A DNA stretch of 63,187 nt from Corallococcus exiguus (GTDB lineage: Bacteria; Myxococcota; Myxococcia; Myxococcales; Myxococcaceae). The notes beneath the pieces are model-generated. The model had not been told where the DNA came from, did no database searches, and saw only the letters and a list, made by a program, of their open reading frames with translations. The translations under genes were made by a program, and so were the position numbers. The stretch is from NCBI RefSeq assembly GCF_012985275.1, contig NZ_JABEKY010000003.1. The stretch is one strand, 5' to 3'. Positions 6,263 to 38,312 of the stretch are shown here, piece after piece; position 1 is the first letter of the stretch; every line of letters starts with the position of its first letter.

Positions 6263-7470
6263 CCTCGCCTCCTCCACAGCGAGCGGCCGGTCATCCGGCG
6301 CCGCAGTCGCTGTTCTGCTTGCTGGAGCACTTCGGCGTCCCTCGCCGTGAGGCGGCGGCCGTTCACGAAGAAGGCCCGTGCGTTGGTTTCTGGTTCGTAT
6401 TCCGGTGCTTCTTCCCACACGGGTTCTTCATCCGGTGCTTCGGGGCGTGGCGGTGCTGAGACTCGCGGCGGAGGCAGCAACGTCTTCACTTCGATGTGCA
6501 CCGGGCCTGGTGCTGTGTGCCTCGTGGCCCGTGATGGGGGGAGGATGGATTCGCCCTGCTCCTCCGATTGGGAAGGTCGCGGAGTCCGTGATTCAGGTCG
6601 GTCGTGACGACGTGGCCCGAGTTCCTCCTGGAACGGTGGGGCCTTCCGTGTGTCCGGTGCCGGCGGTCGGTCCAGGGCTCGTGGTATCCGTCTCCTCCGT
6701 GGAGGTGCCCGTGCGGACGTCTCCCCTTGCTCCACTGGGGGAGCGGGTGGTGACGCTTGTGTGGTGGCGCGCGCGACGCGATGGCGGCGTGTTGAGGACT
6801 CCGGGACCCGTGCGCTGATCCGTGGGCGTTCGGCGTTCTTCTCCATGCCGGGTCTCGGCACCCGGCTCCTTCGCGGACTTGGAGCCTTCACGCGTGTTTC
6901 GACGGCGAGAGGGACCTCTGAGGCCGTCTGGCTTTCAGGTTTGGGCCGGTCGCCTCGTTGTGAAGGGACATCCGTGCCCTCGGTGCGAGGACGAAGTGGT
7001 CGTGGCTCCGCGACCTCCGTCTGGAGTTCTGGGGCGTTGGGGACAACGGGGAGCGCGAGCGTCGGAGGCAGTTTCCCGTCTGGACTCCGGGTCACGGGTT
7101 CGACCGGTGGCCGTGGTTCCTGGAGCTGCGCCGACGTGCCGCCAGGTCGGGGAACGCGACGGCGGATGGGTGGGATGGGTTCCGTTGCGGCTGGGACTTC
7201 GACCCGCTCAGGACTCTTGAACACGGGTGGCATCACGTTGTCAGGCTCCGTGAATCCCATGGACCTGGGGCCTGTCGAGGGCGCGGCGGTCTTCACCGCG
7301 CGGCCTGGCTCCCCTTCCCGCCTCCGCGCACCCGGCGTTGGCAGGGACGGTGGCAGCGGCGGATCCACCTTGAAGTCTCCGCGCTCTCCTCGCTCCAGGG
7401 GATGGAGCACCCGGTCCAGTTCCGTCAGCAGCGCGGCCACCACGAAGAGGTCGTCTCTGGCTTCGCTCAT
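6259..7470 (-). CDS. proline-rich, largely disordered protein (403 aa) with short structured N- and C-termini
   Basis: ATG MSEARDDLFVVAALLTELDRVLHP overlaps the stop of the 720-aa gene as ATGA. About 300 aa of P/R/E/S/T-rich low complexity follow. The C-terminus is ARAFFVNGRRLTARDAEVLQQAEQRLRRR. Confidence 0.6.
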   Translation of the reverse strand: MSEARDDLFVVAALLTELDRVLHPLERGERGDFKVDPPLPPSLPTPGARRREGEPGRAVKTAAPSTGPRSMGFTEPDNVMPPVFKSPERVEVPAATEPIPPIRRRVPRPGGTSAQLQEPRPPVEPVTRSPDGKLPPTLALPVVPNAPELQTEVAEPRPLRPRTEGTDVPSQRGDRPKPESQTASEVPLAVETRVKAPSPRRSRVPRPGMEKNAERPRISARVPESSTRRHRVARATTQASPPAPPVEQGETSARAPPRRRRIPRALDRPPAPDTRKAPPFQEELGPRRHDRPESRTPRPSQSEEQGESILPPSRATRHTAPGPVHIEVKTLLPPPRVSAPPRPEAPDEEPVWEEAPEYEPETNARAFFVNGRRLTARDAEVLQQAEQRLRRRMTGRSLWRRRG

Positions 7471-9629: not shown

Positions 9630-11236
9630 GGGCCAGTTCCCTTCTTTGGCGTGCCGGGTGGCGGCGTGGACGCGTCAGCCGCGGGGGGCTGCGGACCCGG
9701 CGGACGTTCGGACGCGCCCGGACCTCCGAAGCCGATCGCCAGCGAACGCCCTCCCCGGCGCTGGGCGTGCTTCGTGGACGCAATGCCCTCCAGGATCTCC
9801 TTCTGTTCCTCCACGTGCTCCTTCGACTGGTCCAGCACCTCCACCAGCGCGGAGCGGCTCCGCTCGGCGGCGGCCTTCAGTTCATCTGGCGTGCGCCCCA
9901 TCGCCTTCACGAACCTCTGGGGCGCCTTCTCCACCGCGTTCACGAACTTGTCCGCCTGCTTCTGGGCCGTCGTCTTCAGATTGCCCCAGGCGTCCTTCAC
10001 CTCGTCCGTGTTCGCCTCCAGCACCTGCGCCGCCTCGCTCTCCAGCAGGGCCTTCTTCACGTCCTGGAGCGTGAGGTCTCCCGACGCCAGCTCCATCGCG
10101 GACGACAGGCCCAGCAGCTCCCAGAGCATCGCGGCCTTCGCCAGGTTGGGCCCCGCCGCCAGCAGGCAGATGCCTCCCACGTAGCCTCCGGGGGGCCGGC
10201 TCGTCGCCGTGAGGAAGGCCTGCTTCAGCCCCGCCACTCCGCCCGTCGTCGACACCGGCAGCGCGTACATGCCCGCGGACTTCAGCGCGTTCAGCAGGTC
10301 GATGATGGCCTGCACCGCCTGCGCCAGCTTCATCAACACCTGCACCTTGTCCTGCATCGCGGCGGCGAGACTCCGGAGAAGCGTCGCCAGGTTGTCCACC
10401 GACAGGAGCAGCGCCCTCAGCGCCTCCGGGAGGATGAGCAGCTTCTCCAGGTCCGGGAACAGGTCGCGCATGCGCGCGGACTTCCAGTCCGGCTTCACTG
10501 ACCTTCCGCGCGCCCGGCTGCGGCGAGGATCCAACGCGCCCTTGGGGTACTTCTCGAACGCCTTCTTGAACGCGCTGATGTTGAGCAGCTTGCCCAGCAG
10601 GTACAGCGCCTGCCGGAGCGCATCCAGCGACGGTGCCGCCATCACGATGAACACCGCCTGCACCGGCGCGCCGTCCGTCACCGTCGGGCGTGAGTCATCC
10701 CCTGGATCATCGAAGGACGCGACGAACCGCCCCGCCCAGCGCGCGAAGCCGTCCGGCGTCACCGGCGGGCGCTCCAGCGCGAAGCCCGCCTTGAAGTCCT
10801 TGGGGATGTTCGGGATGAAGCCGGTCTCCGCCAGGTTCGTCTCCGTGGGCCCGATGCCCGGCGCGTCCGCGTAGAGGTACGCGCCCGCGTTGAGCAGGTC
10901 GTTGATGATGTCCTTGAGCAGCTCGTAGGCCGCGAGGATGAGCGCCCGGAACGGATCCGGCAGCCCCAGGAGGATGGCCGCCAGCGCCTGGAGCAGCGCC
11001 TGCACGAACTGGAGCACCGCGATGATGATCTGCAGCGGCGGCTTGACGATGCCCACCAACTGCTCCAGCCCCGGCGGCACGCCGATCAGCAGCGGCCGCC
11101 ACGCGGGCCCACTCCCGGCGTCCGTGCCGGTGGCGTCCGTGCCTTCCGCATCCTCCAATGCCTTCGCCAGGTCCTCGCAGCAGGCCTCCAGCGCGCCGTG
11201 GAGTTCAGCGATAGCGGCGTCGTTGAACTCGGCCAC
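9626..11236 (-). CDS. hypothetical protein (536 aa) with hydrophobic helical segments; possible tape-measure-like or membrane-active protein
   Basis: GTG start with GGGAGGA 5 nt upstream. Hydrophobic stretches LQIIIAVLQFVQALLQALAAILLGL and LAQAVQAIIDLLNALKSAG. Charged, coil-like C-terminus followed by a Gly/Pro tail. Confidence 0.65.
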   Translation of the reverse strand: MAEFNDAAIAELHGALEACCEDLAKALEDAEGTDATGTDAGSGPAWRPLLIGVPPGLEQLVGIVKPPLQIIIAVLQFVQALLQALAAILLGLPDPFRALILAAYELLKDIINDLLNAGAYLYADAPGIGPTETNLAETGFIPNIPKDFKAGFALERPPVTPDGFARWAGRFVASFDDPGDDSRPTVTDGAPVQAVFIVMAAPSLDALRQALYLLGKLLNISAFKKAFEKYPKGALDPRRSRARGRSVKPDWKSARMRDLFPDLEKLLILPEALRALLLSVDNLATLLRSLAAAMQDKVQVLMKLAQAVQAIIDLLNALKSAGMYALPVSTTGGVAGLKQAFLTATSRPPGGYVGGICLLAAGPNLAKAAMLWELLGLSSAMELASGDLTLQDVKKALLESEAAQVLEANTDEVKDAWGNLKTTAQKQADKFVNAVEKAPQRFVKAMGRTPDELKAAAERSRSALVEVLDQSKEHVEEQKEILEGIASTKHAQRRGGRSLAIGFGGPGASERPPGPQPPAADASTPPPGTPKKGTGP

Positions 11237-11399
11237 GCGCGTCCTCCCGGGTGCGTTGTTCCAGCTCCATCAGCTTCTCCAGCCGCTCGGCGTCCTGGGC
11301 CACGCCCACCGCCGCCGCCTGGAGCAGCAGGGCCTTCACCTCCTCCAGCCGCTCACGCAGCACCGAGGCTTCCAGTGGCTTCCAGTCGGGAGCCTTCAT
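11205..11399 (-). CDS. small coiled-coil-like protein (64 aa)
   Basis: GC3-rich ORF starting 4 nt after the spike gene stop. Overlaps the start of the 536-aa gene by 32 nt. Weak RBS. Confidence 0.35.
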   Translation of the reverse strand: MKAPDWKPLEASVLRERLEEVKALLLQAAAVGVAQDAERLEKLMELEQRTREDARGRVQRRRYR

Positions 11400-11403
11400 C
11401 GCG

Positions 11404-12591
11404 TCACCCCACCGGCATGCGCTTGACGAAGCCGAAGTAGGACCAGTCCAGCATCGGCGTCATCGCCGCCCAGACATCCAGCAGTGGCCCGTACGCGGCC
11501 ACCGTCATCGGGTTCACCGCCTTGAGGATCTGCGCCAGCATCGTGAAGTGGATGGCCAGCCCGTCCCCCAACACCATGGGCGAGATGGCGGTGATTCCTC
11601 CCATCTGGCACACGCCCAGCATCGTGTTGATGGACACGTTGCCCGCCAGCGCGTCGATGGAGACAGCGTTGAGCGACGGGCCCGGCATGTCCGGCATCGC
11701 CGCGGCCACCTTCACCGCCTTGCCCGCGGCGAGGTTCACGTTGCCGCCGGACGTGACGCCGTAGCCTCCCACCGCTGTCTCCTGCGACGCGCCGGAGACG
11801 ATGCGCGTGTGGCTGCCCTGGATGCGGTCCTCGCGCGGACCGCCCACGATCTCCTTCACGCCGCTGCCACCCACCGTGCGCGAGTAGCCCGCAACGTCCA
11901 CCTTCTCCGTCAGCGACCCCGTCACGTGCAGCGACACGTCCCCGCCCACGTCGCGGGTGTGACTGCCGTCCACCGTCTCGTCCTGCTTGCCCGCGACCTC
12001 CAGGTGGTCGTCGCCGTCCACCTCCGCGGAGCGGTTGCCCTCGTTCACCGTGCGCTCGTTGCTGATGAGCCGGTCCAGGCCTTCCGCGGACAGGATGACG
12101 CGGTTGCCCTGCCGGTCGTGGATCTCCACACGCGCGGTCTCCGGCCGGTCGTCCAGGACGATGTAGTGGCCCGTGGCGGACTTGAGCATCCGCACGCCCG
12201 GCACCGCGGACTGGGGCGGGTAGTCGTGCTTGGGAATCTCGCTGACGTCCGGAGCCACTCGCGCGGTGGAGTCTGGCTGGCCCAGGTCCGCGAGCGCGGG
12301 CTGCCCCCACCACATGCCGCTCCAGATGGGCTGGGACAGGTCTCCGCCCTCGAACTCCACCCAGACGCCCGCGCCCACGTCCGGCACCACGAAGAGGCCC
12401 TGATCCGGTCCCGCGTACGGCGTGCACGGCATGGCCCAGCCCGTGGCCACATCCCCCATCAGGCGCGGCACCACGCACTGGATGCGCCCCAGGTTGAGCG
12501 GGTCCGAGACGTTCGTCACATAGCCCCGGTACTTGCCGAAGTAGCGGCTCTCCGTGCGTTCGATGAGCTGCTGCAGCAGTTGTTCGATCAT
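11404..12591 (-). CDS. baseplate spike protein, gp5/gpV (Phage_base_V) family
   Basis: N-terminal YFGKYRGYVTNVSDPLNLGRIQCVVPRLMGDVATGWAMP...VPDVGAGVWVEFEGGDLSQPIWSG is the classic gpV/gp5 OB-fold. The C-terminus is Gly-rich with spike-like repeats. Confidence 0.8.
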   Translation of the reverse strand: MIEQLLQQLIERTESRYFGKYRGYVTNVSDPLNLGRIQCVVPRLMGDVATGWAMPCTPYAGPDQGLFVVPDVGAGVWVEFEGGDLSQPIWSGMWWGQPALADLGQPDSTARVAPDVSEIPKHDYPPQSAVPGVRMLKSATGHYIVLDDRPETARVEIHDRQGNRVILSAEGLDRLISNERTVNEGNRSAEVDGDDHLEVAGKQDETVDGSHTRDVGGDVSLHVTGSLTEKVDVAGYSRTVGGSGVKEIVGGPREDRIQGSHTRIVSGASQETAVGGYGVTSGGNVNLAAGKAVKVAAAMPDMPGPSLNAVSIDALAGNVSINTMLGVCQMGGITAISPMVLGDGLAIHFTMLAQILKAVNPMTVAAYGPLLDVWAAMTPMLDWSYFGFVKRMPVG

Positions 12592-12800
12592 CGCGCGCTC
12601 CCCAGGTCGTCGTCCTCGTCGTACTGGCGCACGCCGGAGACGTCCGACAGGTTGATGTAGACGGGTGTGGCGCCATCCGGCCCGGTGAGGTGGACGACGT
12701 CGTCGATGAGCTCCACCACCAGGCCCACGTACACCTGGCCCAACGTGGTGAAGAGGTAGCAGCGCTGCCCCATGCTGGCTTCGAGCAGCTTGCGCATCAC
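12588..12800 (-). CDS. small hypothetical protein (70 aa)
   Basis: ATGA overlap with the spike gene start and with the upstream small gene. Sequence MGQRCYLFTTLGQVYVGLVVELIDD. Confidence 0.5.
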   Translation of the reverse strand: MMRKLLEASMGQRCYLFTTLGQVYVGLVVELIDDVVHLTGPDGATPVYINLSDVSGVRQYDEDDDLGSAR

Positions 12801-13138
12801 TCCTCCAGCTTCTGCACCAGCCGAGTGGCCAGCTTCACGCGCGTGTCCACCCAGATGCCCACGTCGCGCTGGCGCTCGGAGGCGAGCCTGCGGCGCGCGG
12901 CGCGCACCAGGTCCTGGAGCGTCACGGGCACCGTGGGCACCGGCGGCAGGCGGGAGATGCGCACGTCCAGCGCCCTGAGCACCGCGGTGTCCAGGTCCAG
13001 CTTCGCGCGCGTGCCGGCCAGGTTCTCCAGCGTCGCGGCCTTCGCGTCGGGCGCGTCCGGCGTGGCGGAGAGGGAGACTTCGGGCAGCGCGGTGCGCTGG
13101 AGGGCGACACGGCCACTGAGGGCGAAGGGGTCGGGCAT
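12797..13138 (-). CDS. small hypothetical protein (113 aa), possibly a fibre assembly factor
   Basis: Internal ATG (MPDPFALSG...) with GAGGA 8 nt upstream, 31 nt after the giant gene stop. The region upstream of this ATG in the ORF is Arg-rich and overlaps the giant gene. Confidence 0.4.
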   Translation of the reverse strand: MPDPFALSGRVALQRTALPEVSLSATPDAPDAKAATLENLAGTRAKLDLDTAVLRALDVRISRLPPVPTVPVTLQDLVRAARRRLASERQRDVGIWVDTRVKLATRLVQKLEE

Positions 13139-13169: not shown

Positions 13170-16100
13170 CTACGGGTTGAGCTCCACCACGGCGTCGGCT
13201 TCCTGGACGTGCACACCGGAGGTGGTCGCGTTGCCGACGGCCGCCACGCGCGAGCCGCCCAGGATGATGACGGAGTGGGCATACGGATCCGGCAGCGGCT
13301 CCGGTGGGAGAGGCCGGATGCCCGCGTCCTGCACCGGTATGGGGCCGGTGGTGCCGCCCGTGTAGAACGAGTCCGCCAGCACCTCGTGCAGCACGGAGAC
13401 ATTGAGGATGCTCTCCTTCACGGTGGACGCCGCCGAGTCGATGCCGAGCACGCTCTTGTCCACCAACTGGAGGGCCTTCTTCGGGTCGCCGTCCGCCGCG
13501 GTCAGCACGGAGCGCACCTGGCCCTGCACGTCCTCGGGATTGTCCGCGTGCATCGCGACGCGGTCCACCAGGTCCCGCAGCGCGCTCGTGGGCGAGTCGT
13601 CCTTCGTCACCGCGATTCCGTAGAGCGTCCGGGCCGCCATGCTCACGTCCATGGTCGCGGGCAGCTTCGAGCGGACGTCCTGCATCGTCGCGTTGTCCAG
13701 CACGCCCTTGGCGGGGACCTCCGCCCGGGCCTGGGGAGGGAGGGGCGTGGGTTGGAAGACGAGCTCCGCGAGCAGCGTGGAGAAGGCATCGCTTGCCACG
13801 TCGCGGCGGCGCTGGAGGCCGCCCAGGAGCAGCTCCTGGTCCAGGGGCACGCCCAGGGTGGAGCCTCCGCCCACGGGAATCTGGAGCGTCAGCCTGTCCG
13901 AGGGCATCAGCCACTGGGGACGCACCACCGGCGGGGGCGGCGTCACCGTCTCCGCTCCCAGCACCACGTTGCCGGTGAAGGTCACCGGCGCTTTCTCCAC
14001 GCGCAGGACGACGACGTTCACCGCGTCCAGGCACTGGCACCGGTTGCCGCTGAAGACGGTGGAGTCCGCGCGGCGCAAGTACACCGCGCCCACGCCGCCC
14101 TCGCTGCGCAGCTCGTTGCCGGACACGGCCGCGGAGATGACCGCGCCGCCGTTGCCCAGCAGGAGCAGCGCAGGGCCTCGCGCGGTGATGTCGTTGCCTT
14201 CCACCTGCACGCCCCGTTTCTCCTTCACCACTGGTTTCGGGAGGATGGGGATGGGCTTGACGAGGAAGTCCACCAGCGCGGGCTGCACCAGCGCCGTCGT
14301 CGCCGTGAGATAGCGCGAGGCCGCCGCGCTGGCGCTCAGGGTGGGTGCGAAGTCCGCGGCCGTCACCGCGAGCGCGCGGTTGAGCACCGGCCCCGTGGCG
14401 AACTTCTGCTTCAACGAACCCAGCTGCACCAGGTCCTCCACGCGGGGCACCGACGCGAGCGTGGCGATGGAGGACGGCGATGAATTGCCGGGGACCGTGC
14501 GGCCATCCGTGCTCGGCTTGGGCACCGGGTCCGTGGCGAGGAAGGGCACGCGCGACAACTTCGTCACCAGGTCCGGAGGCAGCGTGTCGGTGACGACGAG
14601 GACGCCCGCGCCTCCGCCACCACCGCCCGCGTGGCGCACGGTGTTGCCGCGCACCACCGTCTCGCCTCGCCAGTCGATGGCCACCTCGTGGAGCACCGCC
14701 TGCGGCAGCGTGTTGCCGCTCTCCAGGAAGACGTTGCCCTTTACCACCAGCTCGCCGGAGCCCACGAAGGAGGCCACCGCCTGGCCCATGCCGGGCTCGC
14801 CCGCGGTGGGCAGGCCCGCGCACGCGAAGAGGTGGTTGTCGGAGACCACCGTCACGGACAGGTCCGGCCGCAGCCGCAGGCCCGACACCGCGCAGCCCTC
14901 CAGCCGATTGCCATCCACGTCCAGCAGTGAGCCTGGATCCGTGGGCGCCTCCGTCAGCAGGTGCCCCGCCGCGCCCAGGGCGGTGATGCCGGTGACGGTG
15001 TCGCGCACGGTGTTGTCCGCCAGCCGCACGCGGCCCTGCACGCCGGACACGAAGAGGCCGTCCGCTGGCAACGGGAAGGTGTCGAAGACGGGATCCACCA
15101 GGTCGCCGGGGTCCGGGGCCTCGCCGCGCGCCAGCTGCTCCAGCGACTTGCGCAGCATGTCCAGGATGGCGTCCAGCGCCTGCATGCCGGTGACGACGGC
15201 TACGAGCGACGCGGAGACCTTGTCGGAGCGCTGACGCAGGTACTCCTGGAGCCGCGCGACTCGTGATGCGTCGTCCTCGGCGGGGTCCAGGGCCTGCTCC
15301 ACGGCGCGCAGCAGGACCGCGGCGGCGTCCAGCTCGGCCGTCACCGCGCTGGATTTGGCGACGGCCTCCGCGGCGGTGGTCGCGGGCTCGTCCACCAGCA
15401 GGTGCAGGGCCTGGCGCGCGGGCGTGCCGCCGTTACCGCTGGTCAGCGCGGTGATGGCGTCACTCACGCGCTGGAGCGCCAGCGTGCGCAATCTCCCCTG
15501 GATGCCCGCGATGTCCAGCACGCGGTCGTACTGGGAGAGGTAGAGCTGCAACGAGCCGCTGAGCACCGGCCCCGGCGCCATGCCGCGCACCGCCAGCACC
15601 AGCGCGCCCAGGGCGGAGACCCAGCGCTCCAGCGGCTCCGCCTTCACCGGCACGGGCGGTAGGGGCATGGGCAGCACCTCCAGCGTCTGCACACGGATGC
15701 GGTCCAGGAGGCTCCGGGCGATGGCCACCTGCTCCATGCGCTTCTGCGGCTGGGCAATGGCGTCGAGCACCGCCTGGTGCGCCTGCAACGAGAGCGCGGA
15801 CAGCTCCGCGTCGCCGCTCACCAGCTCGCCCAGTTGGCCCACCGCGGTGCCGAAGGAGCGCAGCTGCTTCTCCACCGTGTCGTCGGACTCAGAGACGAGG
15901 CCCGCCGCCTGCCGGTCCAGGTTCGTGGCGTACAGGCCGATGGTGGCGGTGAGCCCCTGTGCCGCGACGCGCGCGCCGTCCTCCGGCGTGACGTCCGACG
16001 AGGGCAGCACGCCGGTGGTGAAGTCCAGCACCTGCTTGAGGGTGGCGCGCATGCGGTCCACCACCGGCTGCATCTGGCCCCCGGTGCGCTCCACGTCGCG

Positions 16101-19100
16101 GTAGTCCGCCTCCACTTGCGAGGCCAGCGCGGGGTGGAGCTGCTGGAGCTGATCCGTCAGGGCATCCTTGGACAGGCGCAGCTGCACGAGCACGTCCGTA
16201 TTGGCCTTCGCGCCCCGCGTGCCCGGCTGGAGCGGCAGCTGTTGCAGCGCGGCCTGGGCGAAGGTCCCGATGATGGTCTTCTTGGGTCCCACGGCCTGGC
16301 CGATGACGGGCTGCCGCGCGCGCTGCGCCTGCGCCTCGCGCAGCTGGGCCACCTGGCTCAACGCCCCCGCCAGCGTGACGATCGCGGTCAGGTCACCCGG
16401 CCCGCCCTGCACCCGGGCCAGGGCCTTGAGGAGGATCTCCTTCGTGTCGGAGGGCAGGCCCTGCACCAGCGAGTCGAAGGCGCCCTTGATGCGGTCCGCC
16501 GTCGTCGCGACGGCGTCCTTGCCGGACACGGTGGCCAGATCGAACTGCGCCACCATGTCCCACGCCTCCTGGGACACGGGGTCCGGCGCGGTGAAGCTGG
16601 AGGCGCGGCTCAGCGACGAGCGCACCGCGTGCGCGGTCTGGGTGTGGTCGTTGAAGCTCTGGGCGGCGCGCAGATCCGCGACGTCGTTCTCCAGCGCGGA
16701 GAGAATGGAGTCGGGCACGGTCCCCAGGTCCTCCAGCTCCACCAACAGGGTGTCGAGCGGGCCATACAGGCCCCGGCCAAGCTTCTGGCGTCCGTCCACG
16801 TTCGCGCCCGTGTACTGCAACACGATGGCGTACAGGCCCACCACGGCGGAGTGCACGTCCGCGCGCTCCGGGCGAACGGTGGCGCTCGTGACACTGAGTT
16901 GCTGGAGGACCACGGTGATGGGCGGCAGCTTCACCGGCCCCGTCACGGGCGGCGGCTGCGTCGTTGTCACCGGCGCGTGCACGCCGTCCACCTCGTTGCC
17001 CTCCACGGTGATGCTGGAGCCGGACACCACCGCGATGCCCGCCGCGCGCACCTCCGCGTCCGGGAGTCCAGGCGCGCCGTAGGCCTCCGTGCGCCCCACC
17101 TGGAGCAGCCGGTTGCCGCGCACCTGCGCCTCGTCCACGCCCGCGAGCACCACCGCGCCCCGGAGTGTCAACCGCTCCAGCCAGCGCAGCGCAGCGTCCA
17201 GGGGAGCGCGCACGCGGGTCGTGGCGTTGGCGAGCAGCGCCTCCACGAGCGGCCGGGGACGGGACTTCGCGTCCGCGCTCAGCACGGCCTCCAGGCCCGG
17301 GTCCAGGCGGGACAGCGCCAGCGTGTTGTCCTCCTGCGACGGAACGTCCGCGAGCGCCACCTGTTCGAACCGGTTGTCCTCCACGCGCAGGCGTCCCACC
17401 GCGCCGCCCGTGCCCCAGGTGCGCACGGCCGAGTCCCCCAGCGCGCGCACCACGTTGCCTCGGATGCGCACGTCGAACACCGGCTGCGGACCACCCAGCA
17501 GGATGCCGAAGCCCGGCGTGGACTCGCCGTCGCCTTCGATGCGGTTGTCCACCACCTCCACGTCCGAGGCGGGACGTCCGTTGGACGCGCCGTCATCCAG
17601 GCCATCGCCCACGACGATGCCGGCCACCACGCCCAGCACGGACGCGGCGGGCACGGCAGGGAGGGAGATCCATGATTCGCGCACTCGCAGTGCCCGGCCC
17701 GCCAGTTGGATGCCCACCTGGAACAGGCCGTCCGACACGGCGTTGCGGATCTCGTTGCCCACGACGTCCACGCCGTCGCCCGCGACCTGGATGCCCACGG
17801 CCGCGGAGCCCAGAATCTGGTTCTCCGCCACCACCACGCGGTCCACCGGCCCCGCGAGTCCCCCTTCCGCCAGGTCCTGCACCAGGATGCCCACCTGGAA
17901 GCCCTGGATGCGGTTGCCGCGCACCTCCACGCCCGCCAGGCGCCCATCCGCCACGTGGATGCCCGTGGTCGCGTCCCCCAGCGGCTGGAGCCGGTTGTTG
18001 GTGATGGCCAGCGCGTCCACGAAGAGGCCCGCGCGCGGGAAGGACGCGAGGAAGCGCTCCGCGAGATACGGGGCATACGGCGCCACCGCGATGCCTGTCG
18101 CCGCGCCGACGCGGTTCTCGTCGATGACGATGCGAGCGCAGGTGCCCGTCACCAGCACGCCTGTCGCCTCGGAGCCGGCCTGGTTCGCCTGGATGAGGCA
18201 GCGGCGCAGCGTCACGCCACTGGAGTCCGCCAGCGTCACCACGCCATGAGGCAGCACCGCCAGCGCGTCGAGCAGCGGCTTCGCCTCCGGCACGTCCTCC
18301 AGCGGCTGGCCTGGGTGCTGGCGTTGCAGCTTCCGCAGCTGCACCAGCGTGGCCACCACGGAGCCCGCCGCGCGACCCTGGCCCGGGACGATGGCCTTGA
18401 TGCGGTCGACGACCACGTCCACGAAGTCGGCTTCGGCGGACGGGTGCTTCACGTCGTCCTCCTCCAACACCCGGTCGTCGTCCACTTCCACCAGCGGCAC
18501 GAAGCGCTGGCCGTTCGACATGGCCACGCTCGTCTTCACCGCCTTCACCACGGGCTGGAGGCCTCCGCCAATCACCACGTCCTCGAAGGGGGCCTCCACC
18601 AGCTTGAGGTCCTCGATGCGCACGTCGCCATCCAGGCCGCAGCGGTCCACGAAGAAGGCGCCGCCGGAGCCCTGGGTGCGCAGCTCGGTGGCCTCTCCGT
18701 CGCCCAGGAGGTGCACGGAGGACAGGTTGCGCAGCAGCACCGGGTGCTCCAGCTTGTAGCGGCCGGCTCGCACGAAGATGGATCCGCCCTGCCCTCCCAT
18801 CCGGTCCACCGCGGCCTGGAGCGCCTCGTCGCCGGTGATGCCTTCGAGCAGGTCCTGGTCGACGTCGCCGAAGCTGCGCACGCCGTCGCCCACCACCACC
18901 GTGAAGACGCCCGGGCCGATGACGCGCTCGGAGAGTTCCACCAATCTGTCTCGCACCTGGGCGAGCGGCAGGTAGCGCGGGCGCAGGTCCTCGAAGATTC
19001 GCGTCTCGCCGCCTGTCACTCGCGCCAGCGGCACGCAGTGGTGCACCGGACCTTGCACGGGCGCGTCCGTGAGCTGCTCGACTTCGCCGCGGGCCGCGCC

Positions 19101-20777
19101 GTCCGCCGCGCGCACTCGCACGGTGAAGGTCCAGTATTCGGTCGCGCGGCATTCCGCGTTGCCGAAGGCCAGGGTGATGCCGTCGTCGAAGCGATAGCGC
19201 ACGTTGGGCACCAGCAGGTCGCCGCCGTCCCACCGGCGCACCACCGCGCCCTGCTCCGGACTGAAGGCCCGGCCCAGCGTGCCTCCCACGGGCAGCGGCA
19301 CGGGGTCCGTGGTGAGCACTGCGCTCGCGTCCGCCAGCTCCAGCTTGCCAGTGTCCGCCTGGACGCCTCGCAGCAGTCGCAGCACTGGCAGCGACGGGCC
19401 TTCCGGCTGGAGCCGGGTGACCCGGTCCTCGATGACGATGAGGTCGCCCGCGCGTAGCTTCGCGGCGCTCGCGGGGGAGACCTGGAGCGTCATCGCATCC
19501 GCCGCTGCGGGCGCGGTCAGCGGGAGCACCGTGGAGCCGTTGTCTCGCGACCACAGCACCACCGGCTGCGCGCCGCCCCGGAAGAACTCCACGCGGAAGT
19601 GGAGGTTGTCGGAGCCCGTGTAGCCCTCTCCCGTGGAGGCGTTCTCCGTGGACAGGCAGCGGTCTCGGCAGGGATCCAGCGGCTCGGGTGGGAAGCGGTC
19701 TGGCAGCGCGCCCTTCGGGATGTTGGTGGTGAGGCGTGCGTCGCTGGTGGGCGTGGGCAGGACCTCCGCATCGGTGTCAGCCAGTCCCTGGAGCGCGCGC
19801 ACCTGGGTGACGAGCCGCAGGCGCACGGTGGTGTCCTGTCCGTCCAGCGCGGGCTCCTCCAGGAACGCGTCGTCGTACTGGGTGGTGGTCTGCTCCCAGC
19901 AGTCGAGGAAGAAGAAGTGGTGCCGCGAGCCGTCCGTGGGCAGCTCCGCCAGCGGATCCGCCTCCGGTAGATCCGGCTGCACGGAGTAGCGCAGATCCTG
20001 CTCCAGGAAGATGCGCACGCCGTCGAGCAGCATGCGGCCCGCGCCCGGCAGCGTCCCGTCACCACCTCTTATAATGATATCGGCCCCCAGCGCCGCGTCC
20101 TCCACTCGCAGCGCGGCCACCCAGGTGCGGGCCACGGGCGGCAGGCCCAGCACGCCCCAGGAGCTCAGCTTCGTCGGGTCCACGCTCGCGAACGCGGCGA
20201 CGGGGAAGCGCACGTCGTTCCATCCCGTGGGCCGCTGCCCCAGACCGGCGGAGAGGACCGCTTCGTTCCCGTCCGTGTCCGCGACGGCCACGCGCAGGTC
20301 GATGAACTCATCGTCGGTGAGCGGTCGTTCGAAGCGCAGGCCGATGACGAGCGCGGAGGCGGTGAAGGTGGTGTCGTCCGAGCGCGGCACGGCCGTGACG
20401 TCCAACGGCGCGGGCAGCGTGCGGCGCAGCGCGATGTGGCCCCGGCTGCGCACCACGAACGGGAGCGTCTCCGTGTCGTAGCGGTCCAGGCGCAGCTCGC
20501 GCGGGATGATGCGCTCGTCGTCCGCGGGCAGTCCCTGCCCCGTCCAGCCGAGCACATTGCGGATGGGATCCACCAGGTACGTGTCGACGATTCGGAAGCC
20601 GTCGTCGGGCGAGCCCTCGGCGACGTCGGCGGAGCGGCGGCGCGAGTCCACGGTGCGCAGCCGCACCTCCTCGTTCCAGTCGGCGTCGAGGCTCATGCGC
20701 CCCATCTGCTGATAGACGCCGGAGAATCGCCGGGCTTCGTCGAAGCGGGACCTGGAGGTGTACGCTTTCACGGTCAT
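13170..20777 (-). CDS. giant (2535 aa) tail-fibre/tailspike-like protein with long right-handed beta-helix (pectate-lyase-fold) repeat region
   Basis: ATGA overlap with the gpI-like gene. The central ~1000 aa contain repeated NxxxG/GNxIxG motifs (VEVRGNRIQGFQVGILV, GNEIRNAVSDGLF, VVDNRIEGDGEST, VRIRGNVVRALGDSAV) typical of parallel beta-helix repeats. Single uninterrupted frame. Confidence 0.8.
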   Translation of the reverse strand: MTVKAYTSRSRFDEARRFSGVYQQMGRMSLDADWNEEVRLRTVDSRRRSADVAEGSPDDGFRIVDTYLVDPIRNVLGWTGQGLPADDERIIPRELRLDRYDTETLPFVVRSRGHIALRRTLPAPLDVTAVPRSDDTTFTASALVIGLRFERPLTDDEFIDLRVAVADTDGNEAVLSAGLGQRPTGWNDVRFPVAAFASVDPTKLSSWGVLGLPPVARTWVAALRVEDAALGADIIIRGGDGTLPGAGRMLLDGVRIFLEQDLRYSVQPDLPEADPLAELPTDGSRHHFFFLDCWEQTTTQYDDAFLEEPALDGQDTTVRLRLVTQVRALQGLADTDAEVLPTPTSDARLTTNIPKGALPDRFPPEPLDPCRDRCLSTENASTGEGYTGSDNLHFRVEFFRGGAQPVVLWSRDNGSTVLPLTAPAAADAMTLQVSPASAAKLRAGDLIVIEDRVTRLQPEGPSLPVLRLLRGVQADTGKLELADASAVLTTDPVPLPVGGTLGRAFSPEQGAVVRRWDGGDLLVPNVRYRFDDGITLAFGNAECRATEYWTFTVRVRAADGAARGEVEQLTDAPVQGPVHHCVPLARVTGGETRIFEDLRPRYLPLAQVRDRLVELSERVIGPGVFTVVVGDGVRSFGDVDQDLLEGITGDEALQAAVDRMGGQGGSIFVRAGRYKLEHPVLLRNLSSVHLLGDGEATELRTQGSGGAFFVDRCGLDGDVRIEDLKLVEAPFEDVVIGGGLQPVVKAVKTSVAMSNGQRFVPLVEVDDDRVLEEDDVKHPSAEADFVDVVVDRIKAIVPGQGRAAGSVVATLVQLRKLQRQHPGQPLEDVPEAKPLLDALAVLPHGVVTLADSSGVTLRRCLIQANQAGSEATGVLVTGTCARIVIDENRVGAATGIAVAPYAPYLAERFLASFPRAGLFVDALAITNNRLQPLGDATTGIHVADGRLAGVEVRGNRIQGFQVGILVQDLAEGGLAGPVDRVVVAENQILGSAAVGIQVAGDGVDVVGNEIRNAVSDGLFQVGIQLAGRALRVRESWISLPAVPAASVLGVVAGIVVGDGLDDGASNGRPASDVEVVDNRIEGDGESTPGFGILLGGPQPVFDVRIRGNVVRALGDSAVRTWGTGGAVGRLRVEDNRFEQVALADVPSQEDNTLALSRLDPGLEAVLSADAKSRPRPLVEALLANATTRVRAPLDAALRWLERLTLRGAVVLAGVDEAQVRGNRLLQVGRTEAYGAPGLPDAEVRAAGIAVVSGSSITVEGNEVDGVHAPVTTTQPPPVTGPVKLPPITVVLQQLSVTSATVRPERADVHSAVVGLYAIVLQYTGANVDGRQKLGRGLYGPLDTLLVELEDLGTVPDSILSALENDVADLRAAQSFNDHTQTAHAVRSSLSRASSFTAPDPVSQEAWDMVAQFDLATVSGKDAVATTADRIKGAFDSLVQGLPSDTKEILLKALARVQGGPGDLTAIVTLAGALSQVAQLREAQAQRARQPVIGQAVGPKKTIIGTFAQAALQQLPLQPGTRGAKANTDVLVQLRLSKDALTDQLQQLHPALASQVEADYRDVERTGGQMQPVVDRMRATLKQVLDFTTGVLPSSDVTPEDGARVAAQGLTATIGLYATNLDRQAAGLVSESDDTVEKQLRSFGTAVGQLGELVSGDAELSALSLQAHQAVLDAIAQPQKRMEQVAIARSLLDRIRVQTLEVLPMPLPPVPVKAEPLERWVSALGALVLAVRGMAPGPVLSGSLQLYLSQYDRVLDIAGIQGRLRTLALQRVSDAITALTSGNGGTPARQALHLLVDEPATTAAEAVAKSSAVTAELDAAAVLLRAVEQALDPAEDDASRVARLQEYLRQRSDKVSASLVAVVTGMQALDAILDMLRKSLEQLARGEAPDPGDLVDPVFDTFPLPADGLFVSGVQGRVRLADNTVRDTVTGITALGAAGHLLTEAPTDPGSLLDVDGNRLEGCAVSGLRLRPDLSVTVVSDNHLFACAGLPTAGEPGMGQAVASFVGSGELVVKGNVFLESGNTLPQAVLHEVAIDWRGETVVRGNTVRHAGGGGGGAGVLVVTDTLPPDLVTKLSRVPFLATDPVPKPSTDGRTVPGNSSPSSIATLASVPRVEDLVQLGSLKQKFATGPVLNRALAVTAADFAPTLSASAAASRYLTATTALVQPALVDFLVKPIPILPKPVVKEKRGVQVEGNDITARGPALLLLGNGGAVISAAVSGNELRSEGGVGAVYLRRADSTVFSGNRCQCLDAVNVVVLRVEKAPVTFTGNVVLGAETVTPPPPVVRPQWLMPSDRLTLQIPVGGGSTLGVPLDQELLLGGLQRRRDVASDAFSTLLAELVFQPTPLPPQARAEVPAKGVLDNATMQDVRSKLPATMDVSMAARTLYGIAVTKDDSPTSALRDLVDRVAMHADNPEDVQGQVRSVLTAADGDPKKALQLVDKSVLGIDSAASTVKESILNVSVLHEVLADSFYTGGTTGPIPVQDAGIRPLPPEPLPDPYAHSVIILGGSRVAAVGNATTSGVHVQEADAVVELNP

Positions 20778-23700
20778 GATCGGCTCATCCGAACGAGGTC
20801 GTCCTGGCTGCGGTCGGCGTGGAAGGGCGTGATGCCAATGGGCATGCTGTCGTCGGTGCGCGCGGAGAGTTCGCGCTCATGGTCGGAGCGCTCGTCGTGG
20901 GCACCGGGGACTCCGCCGCGCTCGGAGGCGTGGAGCGCTTCGGGGCCGTTGTTGTCGCCCAGGACGAGGTAGCCCGGGTCCGTCTGGCGGTTCGACTGGA
21001 AGGACACGGTGTGCACCCGCGACTGGTGCGACACCGGAGGCTGGCCGCCGCGTGCGAGGAGGCTGTAGCGCAGCCAGCCCAGGTCCGGCCGGTCCGTGCG
21101 CACCTCGCCCGCGAACGCGCAGGAGGAAGCCTCCAGCACGCCCGCTTCCGTGGCCCCGAGCACCGTGCAGTGCCGCAGTCGCACGGTCGCGCCCGCCGCT
21201 CGGATGGCGACGGCGTCGCGGTCTCCGGCGTCGAAGGTGCAGCCCGCGGCGATGAGGTGCACCCAGGGCGGCAGTTCGATGATGCCCACCATGCATCCGT
21301 AGAGGCGTAGCTCCACGTCCGCGGGAGGCAGCGAACGCCGCGCGCTGATGTCCTGGTGCCCACCGCCCGGCATCCACAGGCCCACCTGTCCGGGCGCGCC
21401 CAGGTTGCACCAGCGCAGGTCCGCCTGCCCCAGAGCGAGCACCAGCTCCAGCCGTCCCGCGAGCCATAGGCCCGCGAGCCACACGCGCGTGGCCGCACTG
21501 CCTCCGAAGCCCGGGTAGAACGCCAACGAGAGGCCGTGCTCGTCCGCGCCGATGCAGGGCGTAGCACCCGTGTCCGCGGCGAAGAGGGACAGCCCGTTGT
21601 CCAGGCCCTGTGACAGGCGCTCCGGAGCCAGCCGCGGCGAACCAATGAGGCCCAGCACCGGAGATGTTCCGGACGGACTTCCTTCCGCGACGTTCACGAT
21701 GTCCTGCGGTGACTGGCCTCCAGTCGCCAGCACCGAGGACGTGCCGGTTGCGACGATGGGGCGCGCCTGTCCTCCAGTCGCCAGCACTGGAGGCTCTCCG
21801 GCTTGGAGTCCATCCGCGACGGTGGCGACAATGGGCCGCTCCTGGCCTCCGGCCGCCAGCACTCCGCCCGCTCGCTCCGGAGAGATCCATGCGGTGACAG
21901 GAAGGCCGGTGCCGGAACGGTCGCCAGGACGGTCCGGCGGATCAATGAACGGGAAGTCCGGCTCCGCCCACGCGGTGGGCGGACGGCGGTTCGGCGGAAG
22001 CAGCCCCGCTCCCAATGAGGCGCCCCGCCCTACCCGCGCGGAGATAGTGACGCGGCCCACGGGCGCGTCGTCCTGGAGCACGACGCGGCCCAGGCGTGGA
22101 TCCACCGCGACGATGCCGGTGGCGATGCTCGGAGCGAGCGTCGTCCACGGGCCCAGGCTTCGCTGGCGCAGTTGGAACGGGTGGCGACTCAGCCGTCCGG
22201 GCACCGAATAGCGCCGCGCACCGCCGGCCACGGAAGCATCCCGCGAGTGGTACGCACCACCGGGCCGGGAATCGAGCGGGAGCGGCTGGCCCTCGCGAGG
22301 TTCGATGAACGCGGCGCCGTCGTTGGCGACGTTGAAACGCAGGAGTTCATCCGGGAGCAGAGCCAACTCTGGCAGGAAGGCCAGGTAGCCGCGACCGCCC
22401 AATGAGAAGACGACCTCCGACGCGGGCAGCGGCGCCGGATCCGTGAGGAGCACGCGCCCATCGACGTACAGCGCTTCGCCCGGAACCGGCGGGTTCGTGC
22501 CCGAGGCCTCCAGCGGTCCGGCGACCCAGGCATCCTCGCCTGCCTTCAGCGTCATCCATTGAGGGCGCGTCGTGTCCGCCCAGACGAGCGCCTCCACGCC
22601 GTCGGCGGTGGTGGTTGCCACGAGCGTACCGGGCAGGTTCGCGGTGATGGGCAGTGGAGCCAGGGGGCGCCAGACGGGGCTCGCGGAGGCCGGGTCACAC
22701 AGCATCACCGGCACGGCCAGTTCTCCCGTCACGGCCTCGCCGCCCAGGAGCATCAGTCCTTGCGCCGTGCTCAGCAGCGTCGCGGCCTTGCGCTCCTGGC
22801 GGTTGCGCACCGCATGGGGCCGCCACGGTCCGCCCGTGACCGGCAGCGACCAGAGGTCTCCAGTAGGCGCACCGCCCAGGTCACCGCCGAAGACGAAGAG
22901 CCGGCCGCCGCGCACGCACAGGCTGGGAGCCAGTCGCGCCGAGGGCTGCCGAGGGCTCGCGGTGTCCAACCGCGTCCCCGTCGGAGTCACGGTGTCCAGG
23001 CCCGTCACCGACCACACGCCCAGCTTCCCCGTGCCGTCCGGTGCCACCAGCAACAGTGAGTCACCAGCGATGGCCAGGGACATGCCTGGACCGTCTGGAG
23101 GCAACGCGCCGATGAGCTCCGCCACCTGCCAGGGCGCGCCGTCAGCGCTCGCGTCGAAGCGGGCAAGGCGCAGGCTGCCGTCCGCGAGGTGTTGCTCGAT
23201 GCGCGCGACCCACGGCGCACCGGCCAGGTCCACGCGGATGGCGTTGCTGCGAGGAGGCCCCTGGCGCAGACCCACGGTGAGGGTGCGCCACGTGCCGTCC
23301 GCGTCGCGCAGTCGCGGCTCACCGCTCACCCGTTCAACGAGCAACGCCGCCGTGGTGCCGCCCAGGAGCTGGTTCGCTTCCGGCGTAACGGTGACGGCGT
23401 TCAGTGCGTCCGACACCAGTTCAGTGGACAGGAGCACCGTGTCCGAGTTCTCACGCGCGGCCAGCAGCGTCAGTCGCCAGGTGTCTCCAGGCGAAGGCCT
23501 GCCCCTGTCCGCGAAGCGCAGCGTGGGGGCGGGCCCCAAGGGCGCGGTGGGCAGGGGGCCACGCAGAAGCGGCAGGGCTTCCGGACCCACCAGCGGAATG
23601 CCGTCGACGGAGACGGTGATGGCATCCGCGCGTTCAGCGACGGCGGCGTCCTCGGCCAGCGAGGTAGGGGTGAGCAGCATCGCCGCCGTGCGTCCCGTGA

Positions 23701-24544
23701 CGAGCGACGGAGGCGCGGGCTCATGGCGAGCGGAGAGGCCTCCAGTGAGGTCCGCGCGCTCCAGGGGTTTGAGCCACACCAGGGGGCCATCGCGGTCCAG
23801 TGGATCCACGCGAAAGCCCCGGTAGCCGTTGGGCAGCGTGAGCACGGTGGCCGGGGTGACTTCCTCCAACTCCACGGGCGTCAGGCGCGCGGTTCGGATG
23901 AGGGCAACATCCGGACGTGCCCAGCCCAGCAGGTCCAGCGTGCGCGGCGTCGCGGCGACACGGCCCGCATCCGCGCTCCCCAGCCGGCGCAAGGCCTGGT
24001 CCAGCGTCTCCCCGGGAGCGATGCCAATGAAGGGGCCACGCTCCGGGACACCATCGCGGGGACGCTCGATGCCAGGCGAGCGGCGGGTGAGCGGATCCGC
24101 GAGGCCGATCGGATCCCACATCACCGCGCTGCGGCCGCGCCAGGGCAGCAGGTCGTTGAGGTCCTGGGTCTCCAGCAACGAACGGAAGGACTCATCCACC
24201 TCCGCGTCCCAGAGGCTGGTGACGGAGAGCACCTCCTCCAGCGACGCGAGCGTGCCTTTCCGTCTTCGCCACGCCACCGCGCGAGCCACCACTCCGCGCT
24301 GCACGCGAGGGTCATCGGTGATCAGCCGTGCGCCCATCAACTCCGCGAGCAACGGCAGCGCCTGCGGACCCGCACGCTCCACGAAGTGATCATCCCAGAG
24401 CTGATCCACCGCGCGCGCGAACGCATCCAGCTCCATGCCCAGCACGGCGAGCAGCTTGAGGAGCGGCTGATCCGCGAGCGTGGAGTCCCGCGCCGTGTAG
24501 AGACCCGGGAGGAGTTGGAGCAGCCGCTGAGAAGGAGGGCTCAT
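20774..24544 (-). CDS. baseplate protein, P2 gpI-like (Tail_P2_I N-terminal domain) with Kelch-like repeats and an internal tandem-repeat segment (1256 aa)
   Basis: N-terminus LLPGLYTARDSTLADQPLLKLLAVLGMELDAFA...DPRVQRGVVARAVAWRRRKGTLASLEEVL matches the gpI family, including the RRKGT motif. AAGGAGGG lies 4 nt upstream of the ATG. Several LxVxGG/GGxxxxxDLW Kelch-like motifs. Confidence 0.75.
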   Translation of the reverse strand: MSPPSQRLLQLLPGLYTARDSTLADQPLLKLLAVLGMELDAFARAVDQLWDDHFVERAGPQALPLLAELMGARLITDDPRVQRGVVARAVAWRRRKGTLASLEEVLSVTSLWDAEVDESFRSLLETQDLNDLLPWRGRSAVMWDPIGLADPLTRRSPGIERPRDGVPERGPFIGIAPGETLDQALRRLGSADAGRVAATPRTLDLLGWARPDVALIRTARLTPVELEEVTPATVLTLPNGYRGFRVDPLDRDGPLVWLKPLERADLTGGLSARHEPAPPSLVTGRTAAMLLTPTSLAEDAAVAERADAITVSVDGIPLVGPEALPLLRGPLPTAPLGPAPTLRFADRGRPSPGDTWRLTLLAARENSDTVLLSTELVSDALNAVTVTPEANQLLGGTTAALLVERVSGEPRLRDADGTWRTLTVGLRQGPPRSNAIRVDLAGAPWVARIEQHLADGSLRLARFDASADGAPWQVAELIGALPPDGPGMSLAIAGDSLLLVAPDGTGKLGVWSVTGLDTVTPTGTRLDTASPRQPSARLAPSLCVRGGRLFVFGGDLGGAPTGDLWSLPVTGGPWRPHAVRNRQERKAATLLSTAQGLMLLGGEAVTGELAVPVMLCDPASASPVWRPLAPLPITANLPGTLVATTTADGVEALVWADTTRPQWMTLKAGEDAWVAGPLEASGTNPPVPGEALYVDGRVLLTDPAPLPASEVVFSLGGRGYLAFLPELALLPDELLRFNVANDGAAFIEPREGQPLPLDSRPGGAYHSRDASVAGGARRYSVPGRLSRHPFQLRQRSLGPWTTLAPSIATGIVAVDPRLGRVVLQDDAPVGRVTISARVGRGASLGAGLLPPNRRPPTAWAEPDFPFIDPPDRPGDRSGTGLPVTAWISPERAGGVLAAGGQERPIVATVADGLQAGEPPVLATGGQARPIVATGTSSVLATGGQSPQDIVNVAEGSPSGTSPVLGLIGSPRLAPERLSQGLDNGLSLFAADTGATPCIGADEHGLSLAFYPGFGGSAATRVWLAGLWLAGRLELVLALGQADLRWCNLGAPGQVGLWMPGGGHQDISARRSLPPADVELRLYGCMVGIIELPPWVHLIAAGCTFDAGDRDAVAIRAAGATVRLRHCTVLGATEAGVLEASSCAFAGEVRTDRPDLGWLRYSLLARGGQPPVSHQSRVHTVSFQSNRQTDPGYLVLGDNNGPEALHASERGGVPGAHDERSDHERELSARTDDSMPIGITPFHADRSQDDLVRMSRS
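21714..21870. repeat. imperfect tandem DNA repeat (3 copies, unit 54-75 bp) inside the gpI-like gene encoding LA(A/T)GGQxxPIVAT peptide repeats
   Basis: tggcctccagtcgccagcac at ~21714, tgtcctccagtcgccagcac at ~21768 and tggcctccggccgccagcac at ~21843. Confidence 0.5.
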
Positions 24545-33052: not shown

Positions 33053-33062
33053 GGCCGTCTCT

Positions 33063-34000: not shown

Positions 34001-34018
34001 GGCGTGCGCGTCCTCTCG

Positions 34019-34894: not shown

Positions 34895-34895
34895 G

Positions 34896-35387: not shown

Positions 35388-35411
35388 GGCTTCACTCCTC
35401 GAATGGGGACG

Positions 35412-38302: not shown

Positions 38303-38312
38303 CCTCCTGGTT

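Follow-up and report, generated by a model that had tools for sequence, protein, structure and literature searches.

We analyzed a stretch of 63,187 nt from Corallococcus exiguus (contig NZ_JABEKY010000003.1, assembly GCF_012985275.1; hereafter the window), whose minus strand encodes a phage-tail-like particle from ∼40 kb down to ∼7.5 kb. One gene of this locus encodes a protein of 2535 aa, hereafter the giant, which we interpret as an eBAP5/DUF6519 fiber of an extracellular contractile injection system (eCIS). It is unusual in its size, in its alpha-helical rod, in a second beta-helix restricted to its own family and in its conservation as a block with an enlarged set of baseplate genes. Our results directly support one intact gene, translationally coupled to a Tail_P2_I gene, whose product starts with a DUF6519 domain and contains two beta-helices and a rod, and this architecture and gene neighborhood are kept in three phyla. 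The interpretation that we favor, and that we regard as reasonably probable, is that the giant is a baseplate-docked arm of the particle that binds, and perhaps cleaves or modifies, a conserved polysaccharide through its beta-helix and carbohydrate-binding module (CBM)-like modules. The giant would thus be a peripheral fiber or tailspike-like arm, whose docking, oligomeric state, ligand and any catalysis we infer.

A single intact gene coupled to a baseplate gene

13170..20777, minus strand: giant gene, 2535 aa, 267 kDa, pI 4.9; DUF6519/eBAP5-anchored fiber or spike-like eCIS protein

The list of open reading frames (ORFs) and its translation give this gene as one unbroken frame with an ATG start. 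The GC-content of the window is 67–75%, which makes long spurious ORFs common, and several ORFs of 580–650 aa overlap the gene in other frames. Both points would favor an artifact, whether a chance frame in DNA of 71% GC, a fusion of several genes through sequencing errors or an assembly collapse. However, the GC-content at third codon positions (GC3) is 0.89–0.95 in each 200-codon window, which indicates a single coding frame along the entire gene. We looked for tandem repeats and long direct repeats in the DNA of the gene and found none (direct repeats were only short and of low identity), so assembly collapse is of no concern. Moreover, more than 80 clusters of full-length homologs exist, including proteins from the complete genomes of C. 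coralloides DSM 2259, C. exercitus and Minicystis rosea, and structure prediction yielded confident folds across both modeled tiles of the protein (see below). An artifact of any kind is exceedingly improbable, and since the intact frame recurs in independent assemblies, a frameshift, a gene fusion and a collapse of repeats can be ruled out. The single 2535-aa frame of the initial annotation is therefore borne out, with a uniform GC3 and with intact orthologs in other Corallococcus (2533–2551 aa) and in other phyla. The closest listed relatives are a C. exiguus protein (97% identity) and COCOR_03275 of C. coralloides DSM 2259 (94% identity).

The start codon of the giant gene and the stop codon of the upstream gene (1256 aa) overlap in the sequence ATGA, and this 4-nt start/stop overlap is widely conserved among the loci that we describe below, including those of Corallococcus, Cryptosporangium, Mesorhizobium and Rhodospirillaceae. 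The upstream protein carries an N-terminal Tail_P2_I domain, which agrees with the coupling to a gpI-like gene that was initially proposed. On the other side, the gene located 3′ of the giant begins 31 nt past its stop codon, with a GAGGA motif ahead of the start.

Domain architecture of the giant

We predicted the structure of the giant with AlphaFold2 (AF2) as two monomer tiles, using alignments thinned to 30 sequences. Tile A covers aa 1–1200 (30-sequence alignment; mean predicted local distance difference test [pLDDT] of 83) and tile B covers aa 1336–2535 (mean pLDDT of 79); residues 1201–1335 lie outside both tiles and were assigned from sequence motifs only. The following regions were defined, from the N terminus to the C terminus:

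18918..20777, minus strand: N-terminal DUF6519/eBAP5 domain and proposed baseplate anchor, aa 1–∼620 (Pfam PF20129 and hhalign; ∼50–68% identity across phyla; beta-rich in AF2, pLDDT mostly 85–95)
19998..20600, minus strand: extra beta-sandwich insertion, aa ∼60–260, without counterpart in canonical DUF6519 proteins (nine AF2 strands at aa 94–227)
16983..18905, minus strand: beta-helix 1, pectin-lyase fold, aa ∼625–1265 (helical insertions at aa ∼738–840 and ∼1141–1199; GDG...AIQAA-type cap at its start)
15123..16880, minus strand: all-alpha rod, aa ∼1300–1885 (∼24 helices arranged as approximately six four-helix bundles; residues 1–550 of AF2 tile B, pLDDT ∼85–94)
13845..15065, minus strand: beta-helix 2, aa ∼1905–2311 (AF2 strands; ten xGNxI rungs at aa 1919–2267)
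13362..13838, minus strand: helical segment, aa ∼2314–2472 (AF2 helices, tile residues 979–1137)
13173..13271, minus strand: C-terminal beta-strands, aa ∼2503–2535 (consensus HSLVV.GG.RVAAVGNATTAGV...ELN; AF2 pLDDT ∼87)

The Pfam match to DUF6519 (PF20129) is restricted to aa 7–53 (E = 7.2e-9; 35.2 bits for a cut-off of 22.4). Aligning the giant family to the canonical DUF6519 proteins of ∼1400 aa with hhalign extended the relationship to aa 268–693 (probability 100%; E = 2.9e-54), which indicates that the entire N-terminal ∼620 aa correspond to a DUF6519 domain, and motifs such as YLDVWE, EPALDG.DTT.R, WSRDN, VRRWD and YW.F.AR are common to both groups of proteins. The registers of the two alignments imply that aa 53 and aa 268 are separated by ∼165 residues more than in canonical DUF6519 proteins; the limited extent of the Pfam match is explained by the divergence of the domain and by this additional beta-sandwich. 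The domain is followed by a linker helix at aa 605–616 in tile A. The initial annotation had described an N-terminal domain of about 500 aa; it is longer and belongs to a recognized family.

Beta-helix 1 extends from aa 625 to aa 1140 in tile A, and rungs at aa 1219 and 1258, identified from the sequence only, prolong it to approximately aa 1265. Around 20 xGNxI rungs are present in the giant and they form two blocks (aa 884–1258 and aa 1919–2267). Several polar residues of beta-helix 1 are invariant or nearly so (H844, D851, D944, D968, R1031, D1072 and R1079), and beta-helix 2 presents an invariant Asn ladder together with conserved His, Glu, Trp, Arg and Tyr residues. In the AF2 model, beta-helix 2 comprises aa 1905–2065 and aa 2187–2311, which are split by a variable loop of low confidence that is rich in Pro, Ser and Thr (aa ∼2091–2185). 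The protein thus contains the right-handed parallel beta-helix of pectin-lyase-fold proteins, as indicated both by the fold and by a hidden Markov model (HMM; Beta_helix PF13229; E = 4e-12; 46.4 bits for a cut-off of 25.9).

The two beta-helices are separated by the all-alpha rod, whose length is conserved (∼550–590 aa), with almost no gaps in an alignment of 67 homologs. We compared six units of the rod with hhalign to search for internal repeats and none of the pairs was convincing (59% probability for the best one). A center dominated by beta-helix repeats had initially been proposed: true beta-helices are present, as the HMM and the structure predictions of the tiles both indicate, but they flank the center of the protein, which is all-alpha. 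By count from the AF2 models, beta-helix and alpha-helix would each account for roughly one third of the giant and the DUF6519 domain for one quarter.

The helical segment at aa ∼2314–2472 is the most variable and the most indel-rich part of the protein (11–24% identity, with large insertions in homologs), and it is a candidate for a distal specificity region. The C-terminal strands present invariant Ser, Gly, Gly and Asn residues and are 54% identical across phyla. They probably complete or cap beta-helix 2, a role suggested by their position in the model.

Searches with Foldseek related tile A to phage depolymerase tailspikes, GH87 glucanases, AlgE epimerases and the RbmB lyase (E from 4e-6 to 1e-3). 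Tile A also returned matches of ∼188 columns to the jelly rolls of CBM11, CBM22 and CBM4 (E from 2e-4 to 7e-4). We place these matches on the beta-sandwich insertion (aa ∼60–260), which would then probably be a CBM-like jelly roll. For tile B, nothing was found below E = 1e-3 in the PDB, the best matches being the rods of vinculin, alpha-catenin and talin (E = 2e-3; probability 0.82). At the sequence level, no relative of the giant was found in the PDB, and a search with the family profile returned only noise-level matches to helical bundles and pectin lyases, with helical bundles alone in the rod region. We found no match to NCBIfam and a weak match to a tail spike beta-helix profile of PHROG (E = 1.4e-5); no family of phage tail fibers, collars or adenovirus shafts was matched in Pfam, NCBIfam or PHROG. 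The initial annotation had proposed a depolymerase-like spike. The giant does contain a true pectin-lyase-type beta-helix and its nearest folds are polysaccharide enzymes and tailspikes; a depolymerase activity is suggested only at the level of the fold.

Relationship to eBAP5 fibers

Five domains that anchor putative eCIS tail fibers to the baseplate through their N terminus were recently described, and DUF6519 is the one named eBAP5 (Nachmias et al., Nat Commun 2026; PMC12923769). This study reported 658 eBAP5 genes, found such fiber genes downstream of Tail_P2_I or Afp11/12 homologs in ∼90% of the cases, modeled eBAP5 bound to a Tail_P2_I-like protein by multimer prediction for other members of the family, and observed that the C-terminal regions of eBAP5 proteins often present beta-helix pectin-lyase folds (PMC12923769). 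The giant shares the defining properties of this family: it possesses an N-terminal DUF6519 domain and its gene is located directly downstream of a Tail_P2_I-type gene inside an eCIS cluster. In contrast, it lacks the rapidly evolving and modular C-terminal receptor-binding domains of eBAP5 fibers (see below).

Corallococcus appears in the tables of that study under eBAP3 only, and loci containing Pfam families of type VI secretion systems (T6SS) were excluded from it (PMC12923769). This exclusion may have removed the Corallococcus locus, which adjoins a T6SS cluster. We found no giant lengths in the supplements of the study and no sign that giants of this size were modeled (PMC12923769). A search of the literature specific to a Corallococcus eCIS, or to the particle architecture of this rare lineage, returned no study.

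Distribution and conservation

We identified homologs of the giant in 85 clusters with a word-indexed search, and most of these proteins are full-length (∼2400–2840 aa). Scanning 185,579 species genomes yielded 43 loci with a giant, i.e., the lineage is rare (∼40 species genomes). These loci belong to Myxococcota (Corallococcus species, Archangium, Kofleriaceae, Haliangiales, Polyangiaceae, Minicystis and Byssovorax), Actinomycetota (Micromonospora, Cellulomonas and Acidimicrobiales) and Alphaproteobacteria (Mesorhizobium yinganensis and Rhodospirillaceae). Most of the loci that are not cut by the end of a contig present an intact frame of 2530–2730 aa. The frame is truncated (51–2021 aa) in a few loci of metagenome-assembled genomes (MAGs; L014, L030, L033 and L045). 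These truncations could result from assembly errors or masked stretches, or the genes could be real pseudogenes; a version of the giant with 2021 aa (P0078) is annotated as a DUF6519 protein.

The 67 distant homologs align nearly without gaps from end to end, with 36–50% identity across the three phyla. Conservation is highest in the N-terminal domain (45–68% identity over most of aa 1–700, with 32% at aa 151–200). Cross-phylum identity amounts to ∼35–59% in beta-helix 1, 21–32% at aa 1250–1900 and 33–58% in beta-helix 2, and it rises again over the last 35 residues. Low identity and many indels are confined to three regions (aa ∼751–800, ∼2101–2150 and ∼2300–2500). The most conserved part is therefore at the N terminus and the indel-rich parts lie near the C terminus, which is the polarity expected for a protein whose N terminus is proximal to the baseplate and whose C terminus is distal.

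Within Corallococcus, the giant is 81–99% identical in each 100-residue block and its length remains within the range given above (2533–2551 aa), with no mosaic tip. We conducted an exhaustive HMMER scan of 1.84 billion representative sequences with aa 1336–2535, and only 62 proteins were retrieved, which are either giants of this kind, always matched at the same position, or short, fragment-like proteins. These results indicate that the C-terminal half belongs to the giant family alone and is not a shuffled receptor-binding module. The initial annotation proposed that the giant would set the target specificity and suggested a comparison of its length among related strains. Given its near-constant length, its high identity within the genus and its alignability across three phyla, a role in strain-level specificity is not supported.

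Organization of the locus

The giant gene lies within a set of minus-strand genes that encode the core and the baseplate of the particle:

31587..38389, minus strand: upstream particle core, with sheath, gp19-type tube, CIS_tube protein and gpD-like hub (Pfam Phage_sheath_1, Phage_sheath_1C, Phage_T4_gp19, CIS_tube and Phage_GPD)
24927..31699, minus strand: two consecutive Baseplate_J/gp6-like wedge genes (Pfam Baseplate_J; TIGR02243 in one protein, E = 9e-45; PHROG baseplate wedge families; orthologous gene calls)
20774..24544, minus strand: upstream wedge gene, gpI-like, 1256 aa (Pfam Tail_P2_I at the N terminus, E = 4.8e-7; Kelch family, E = 6e-6; TIGR02242; ATGA overlap)
7467..13138, minus strand: conserved downstream block, encoding in order proteins of 113 aa, 70 aa, 395 aa (spike), 64 aa, 536 aa and 720 aa
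11404–12591, minus strand: spike gene Phage_base_V/gp5, 395 aa (Pfam Phage_base_V, E = 6e-24)

The order of these genes and their near-identical sizes are common to C. coralloides, Cryptosporangium (Actinomycetota), Mesorhizobium and a Rhodospirillaceae MAG. The shared order comprises two J-like proteins (∼1460–1545 and ∼820 aa), the Tail_P2_I protein (∼1250 aa), the giant (∼2540–2640 aa), two tiny ORFs (∼105 and ∼70 aa), the Phage_base_V spike (∼400 aa), a third tiny ORF (∼65 aa) and two larger proteins (∼540 and ∼720–825 aa). The Tail_P2_I gene occupies the same position in the three phyla, and its 1256-aa product is the proposed docking partner of the giant. This locus represents an eCIS lineage with unusually large baseplate components and not a classical R-type tailocin. 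The tailocin setting suggested in the initial annotation therefore needs to be revised, although the fiber position directly after the gpI-like gene was correctly recognized.

The two J-like ORFs of the window (27449–31699, at most 1416 aa, and 24927–27875, ∼837 aa based on the annotation of orthologs) overlap by ∼430 nt (27449–27875), which suggests that the second gene probably begins near 27440 instead. Both J-like proteins far exceed the usual size of Afp11 or gpJ, and the syntenic loci of other phyla have kept them. The Tail_P2_I protein contains a Kelch-type beta-propeller at aa ∼470–600, possibly an extra ligand-binding module of the baseplate. An ORF of 129 aa (24541–24930, minus strand) fits exactly between the second J-like gene and the gene of the Tail_P2_I protein; it overlaps each of them in an ATGA and has no match in Pfam or NCBIfam. 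The matching stretch is uncalled in C. coralloides (814-nt gap) and no such gap exists in the three non-myxobacterial loci; this ORF could be the missing gp25-like wedge protein or could be spurious. The spike gene is placed downstream of the gene in fiber position and not upstream of the wedge genes, with the tiny ORFs of 113, 70 and 64 aa flanking it, and the 536-aa protein presents a weak tape-measure-like match in PHROG (E = 2e-5).

In all three non-myxobacterial loci, a large eCIS_core protein comes after this block. These proteins of 1680–2060 aa carry an N-terminal PF13699 domain, are located at ∼25.8–27.9 kb of the Cryptosporangium, Mesorhizobium and Rhodospirillaceae loci and likely represent toxins or effectors. 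We detected no large protein of the eCIS_core type in the Corallococcus window. Beyond the end of the Corallococcus locus, a protein of 683 aa is encoded in divergent orientation (214–2265, plus strand) and presents a weak match to the DUF6782 metallopeptidase family.

A canonical T6SS cluster (46763–62770, both strands) adjoins the eCIS locus, such that two different contractile systems are neighbors. It includes the following genes:

46763–48430: TssF
50062–50952: gp25/TssE-like gene
56240–57493: TssK/VasE
58110–58748: TssL/DotU
59069–62770: TssM/IcmF

Between the two clusters lies a multi-PAS histidine kinase of 828 aa (40956–43442, plus strand), a possible regulator of one or both of them.

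Possible functions of the giant

Under the interpretation that we favor, the DUF6519 domain would attach the giant to the rim of the baseplate by docking on the Tail_P2_I wedge protein. Beta-helix 1 and the adjacent CBM-like sandwich would bind a surface polysaccharide and possibly cut or modify it, in a manner similar to tailspikes or to alginate epimerases and lyases, and the rod of approximately six four-helix bundles would act as a spacer of fixed length. Beta-helix 2, in distal position and with variable loops (aa ∼2091–2185 and ∼2314–2472), would make the first contact with the target. This engagement would then be relayed to the baseplate, leading to the contraction of the sheath and driving out the gp5/gpV-type spike that is encoded three genes downstream. 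The conservation of the giant from end to end suggests that its ligand is probably a widespread and conserved glycan and not a strain-specific receptor, and the indel-rich distal segments are the only candidates for lineage-specific tuning.

Several observations weigh against this interpretation. Receptor-binding proteins usually diversify fast, whereas the giant is nearly uniform within the genus, has no mosaic tip and can be aligned over its full length across phyla. Fibers usually trimerize, and 18 copies of a 267-kDa protein (six trimers, if the giant is trimeric) amount to ∼4.8 MDa, which by our own estimate probably outweighs the rest of the particle and would be odd for a fiber. Known fibers contain nothing comparable to the rod, for which the monomer prediction is confident. 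We found no match to the giant with tblastn in 50,697 phage genomes (E ≤ 1e-3), in addition to the absence of sequence homologs in the PDB. Finally, the membership of the giant in the particle, its trimeric state and its binding or cleavage of glycans are predictions, and the proposed docking step relies on structure predictions made by another group.

The uniformity of the giant in sequence and length across the genus and the three phyla, its enormous size and the fixed length of its rod would also suit a structural scaffold or tether, i.e., a cage or a device that anchors the particle to the envelope or matrix polysaccharide of the producer itself, from which it would fire in a fixed position. 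Such a device would be comparable to the membrane-anchoring "crown" of the thylakoid-anchored contractile injection system (tCIS) or to the cell-associated systems of filamentous actinomycetes. The lineage is indeed found mainly in developmentally complex and matrix-producing bacteria (myxobacteria, Micromonospora and Cellulomonas), and the related eBAP4 anchor domains of the tCIS crown carry bulky or helical shafts (PMC12923769). However, we detected no transmembrane or lipid-anchor segment in the giant, whose strongest hydrophobic windows are strands of the beta-helices. Beta-helix and CBM-like folds typify glycan-active proteins and are equally suited to binding the surface of a prey, and the eCIS_core (PF13699) proteins of the syntenic loci are typical of released eCIS that carry toxins. 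We consider a scaffold or tether unlikely, and we view as rather improbable a related scenario in which the giant is a conserved arm of fixed length and not a prey-specific binder. In this scenario, the beta-helices and the rod would hold the particle on a conserved polysaccharide, which may be the matrix of the producer or a generic cell-wall glycan, and the arm would set the firing distance or turn a pulling force into a trigger of the baseplate. If true, the lineage would stand apart from other eCIS by its giant baseplate and would follow a targeting logic unlike that of Afp- or PVC-type fibers.

The (nearly) invariant polar residues of beta-helix 1 and the conserved His, Glu, Arg and Tyr of beta-helix 2 are what one would expect if the giant were primarily a baseplate-borne enzyme. 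An epimerase, lyase or hydrolase could clear capsule, exopolysaccharide or fungal glucan to give access to the cell surface, while receptor binding would fall to another protein, for instance the Tail_P2_I protein with its Kelch propeller or the 720-aa product encoded downstream. The conservation of the giant would suit a conserved substrate, but we identified no known catalytic motif in its sequence, including those of the AlgE4, GH87, RbmB and PL6 types. A mainly enzymatic role appears quite unlikely, and it overlaps largely with the polysaccharide-binding arm that we favor, as binding and cleavage are combined in tailspikes.

Efforts to turn eCIS particles into programmable devices for protein delivery are under way, and the fiber decides their target. 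The giant is about twice the size of the largest catalogued eCIS fibers and joins an anchor to two enzyme-like beta-helices and to a helical rod that has no relative among solved structures. Unlike receptor-binding fibers, which normally vary, it is kept as a block with enlarged baseplate genes in myxobacteria, actinomycetes and alphaproteobacteria, and this points to a conserved ligand or to a structural role. In Corallococcus, a genus of soil predators, it is a candidate determinant of the contact with prey or with fungal cell walls. These results are relevant to the structure and re-targeting of eCIS as well as to myxobacterial predation.

Comparison with known systems

The rod of the giant grossly resembles the rods of vinculin, alpha-catenin and talin, which also consist of consecutive four-helix bundles, but TM-scores are ∼0.1 and there is no sequence relationship. 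Since tile B has no match below E = 1e-3, this likeness is only an architectural analogy and no sign of a shared function. The enzymes with folds similar to tile A (the mannuronan C5-epimerase AlgE4, the GH87 alpha-1,3-glucanase, RbmB and PL6 lyases) present only 14–17% identity to the giant, and they are free or secreted proteins, whereas the giant is a predicted part of a phage-tail-like particle.

The tailspike depolymerases of phages (Det7 gp208, the coliphage K5 lyase, Klebsiella phage K64-1 S2-4, the CBA120 tailspike proteins, Sf6 and HK620) share with tile A the fold likeness detected by Foldseek. In contrast to them, the giant is 4–5 times longer, possesses two beta-helices and an alpha rod, and shows neither detectable sequence homology to the 50,697 phage genomes nor diversification at the strain level.

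Afp13 and PVC13 (Serratia Afp and Photorhabdus PVC; eBAP1 group), P2 gpH and the R-pyocin fiber occupy the same functional slot as the giant: the gene that follows the last wedge gene and encodes a baseplate-attached protein that binds the target. These fibers, of ∼500–700 aa, possess other N-terminal anchors and shafts (adenovirus-like, or a triple beta-helix with a downstream chaperone). The giant is indeed far larger than the other described fibers of such particles, as was first noted from its reading frame.

The "mega pectin lyase" fiber of Rhizobium grahamii (IMG 2535518109) resembles the giant in its N-terminal DUF6519 domain, in its pectin-lyase-type beta-helix and in the location of its gene directly downstream of a Tail_P2_I-type gene. 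However, this eBAP5 exemplar is 1079 aa long (PMC12923769), compared to 2535 aa for the giant, and only the giant family possesses the helical rod, beta-helix 2 and the C-terminal module.

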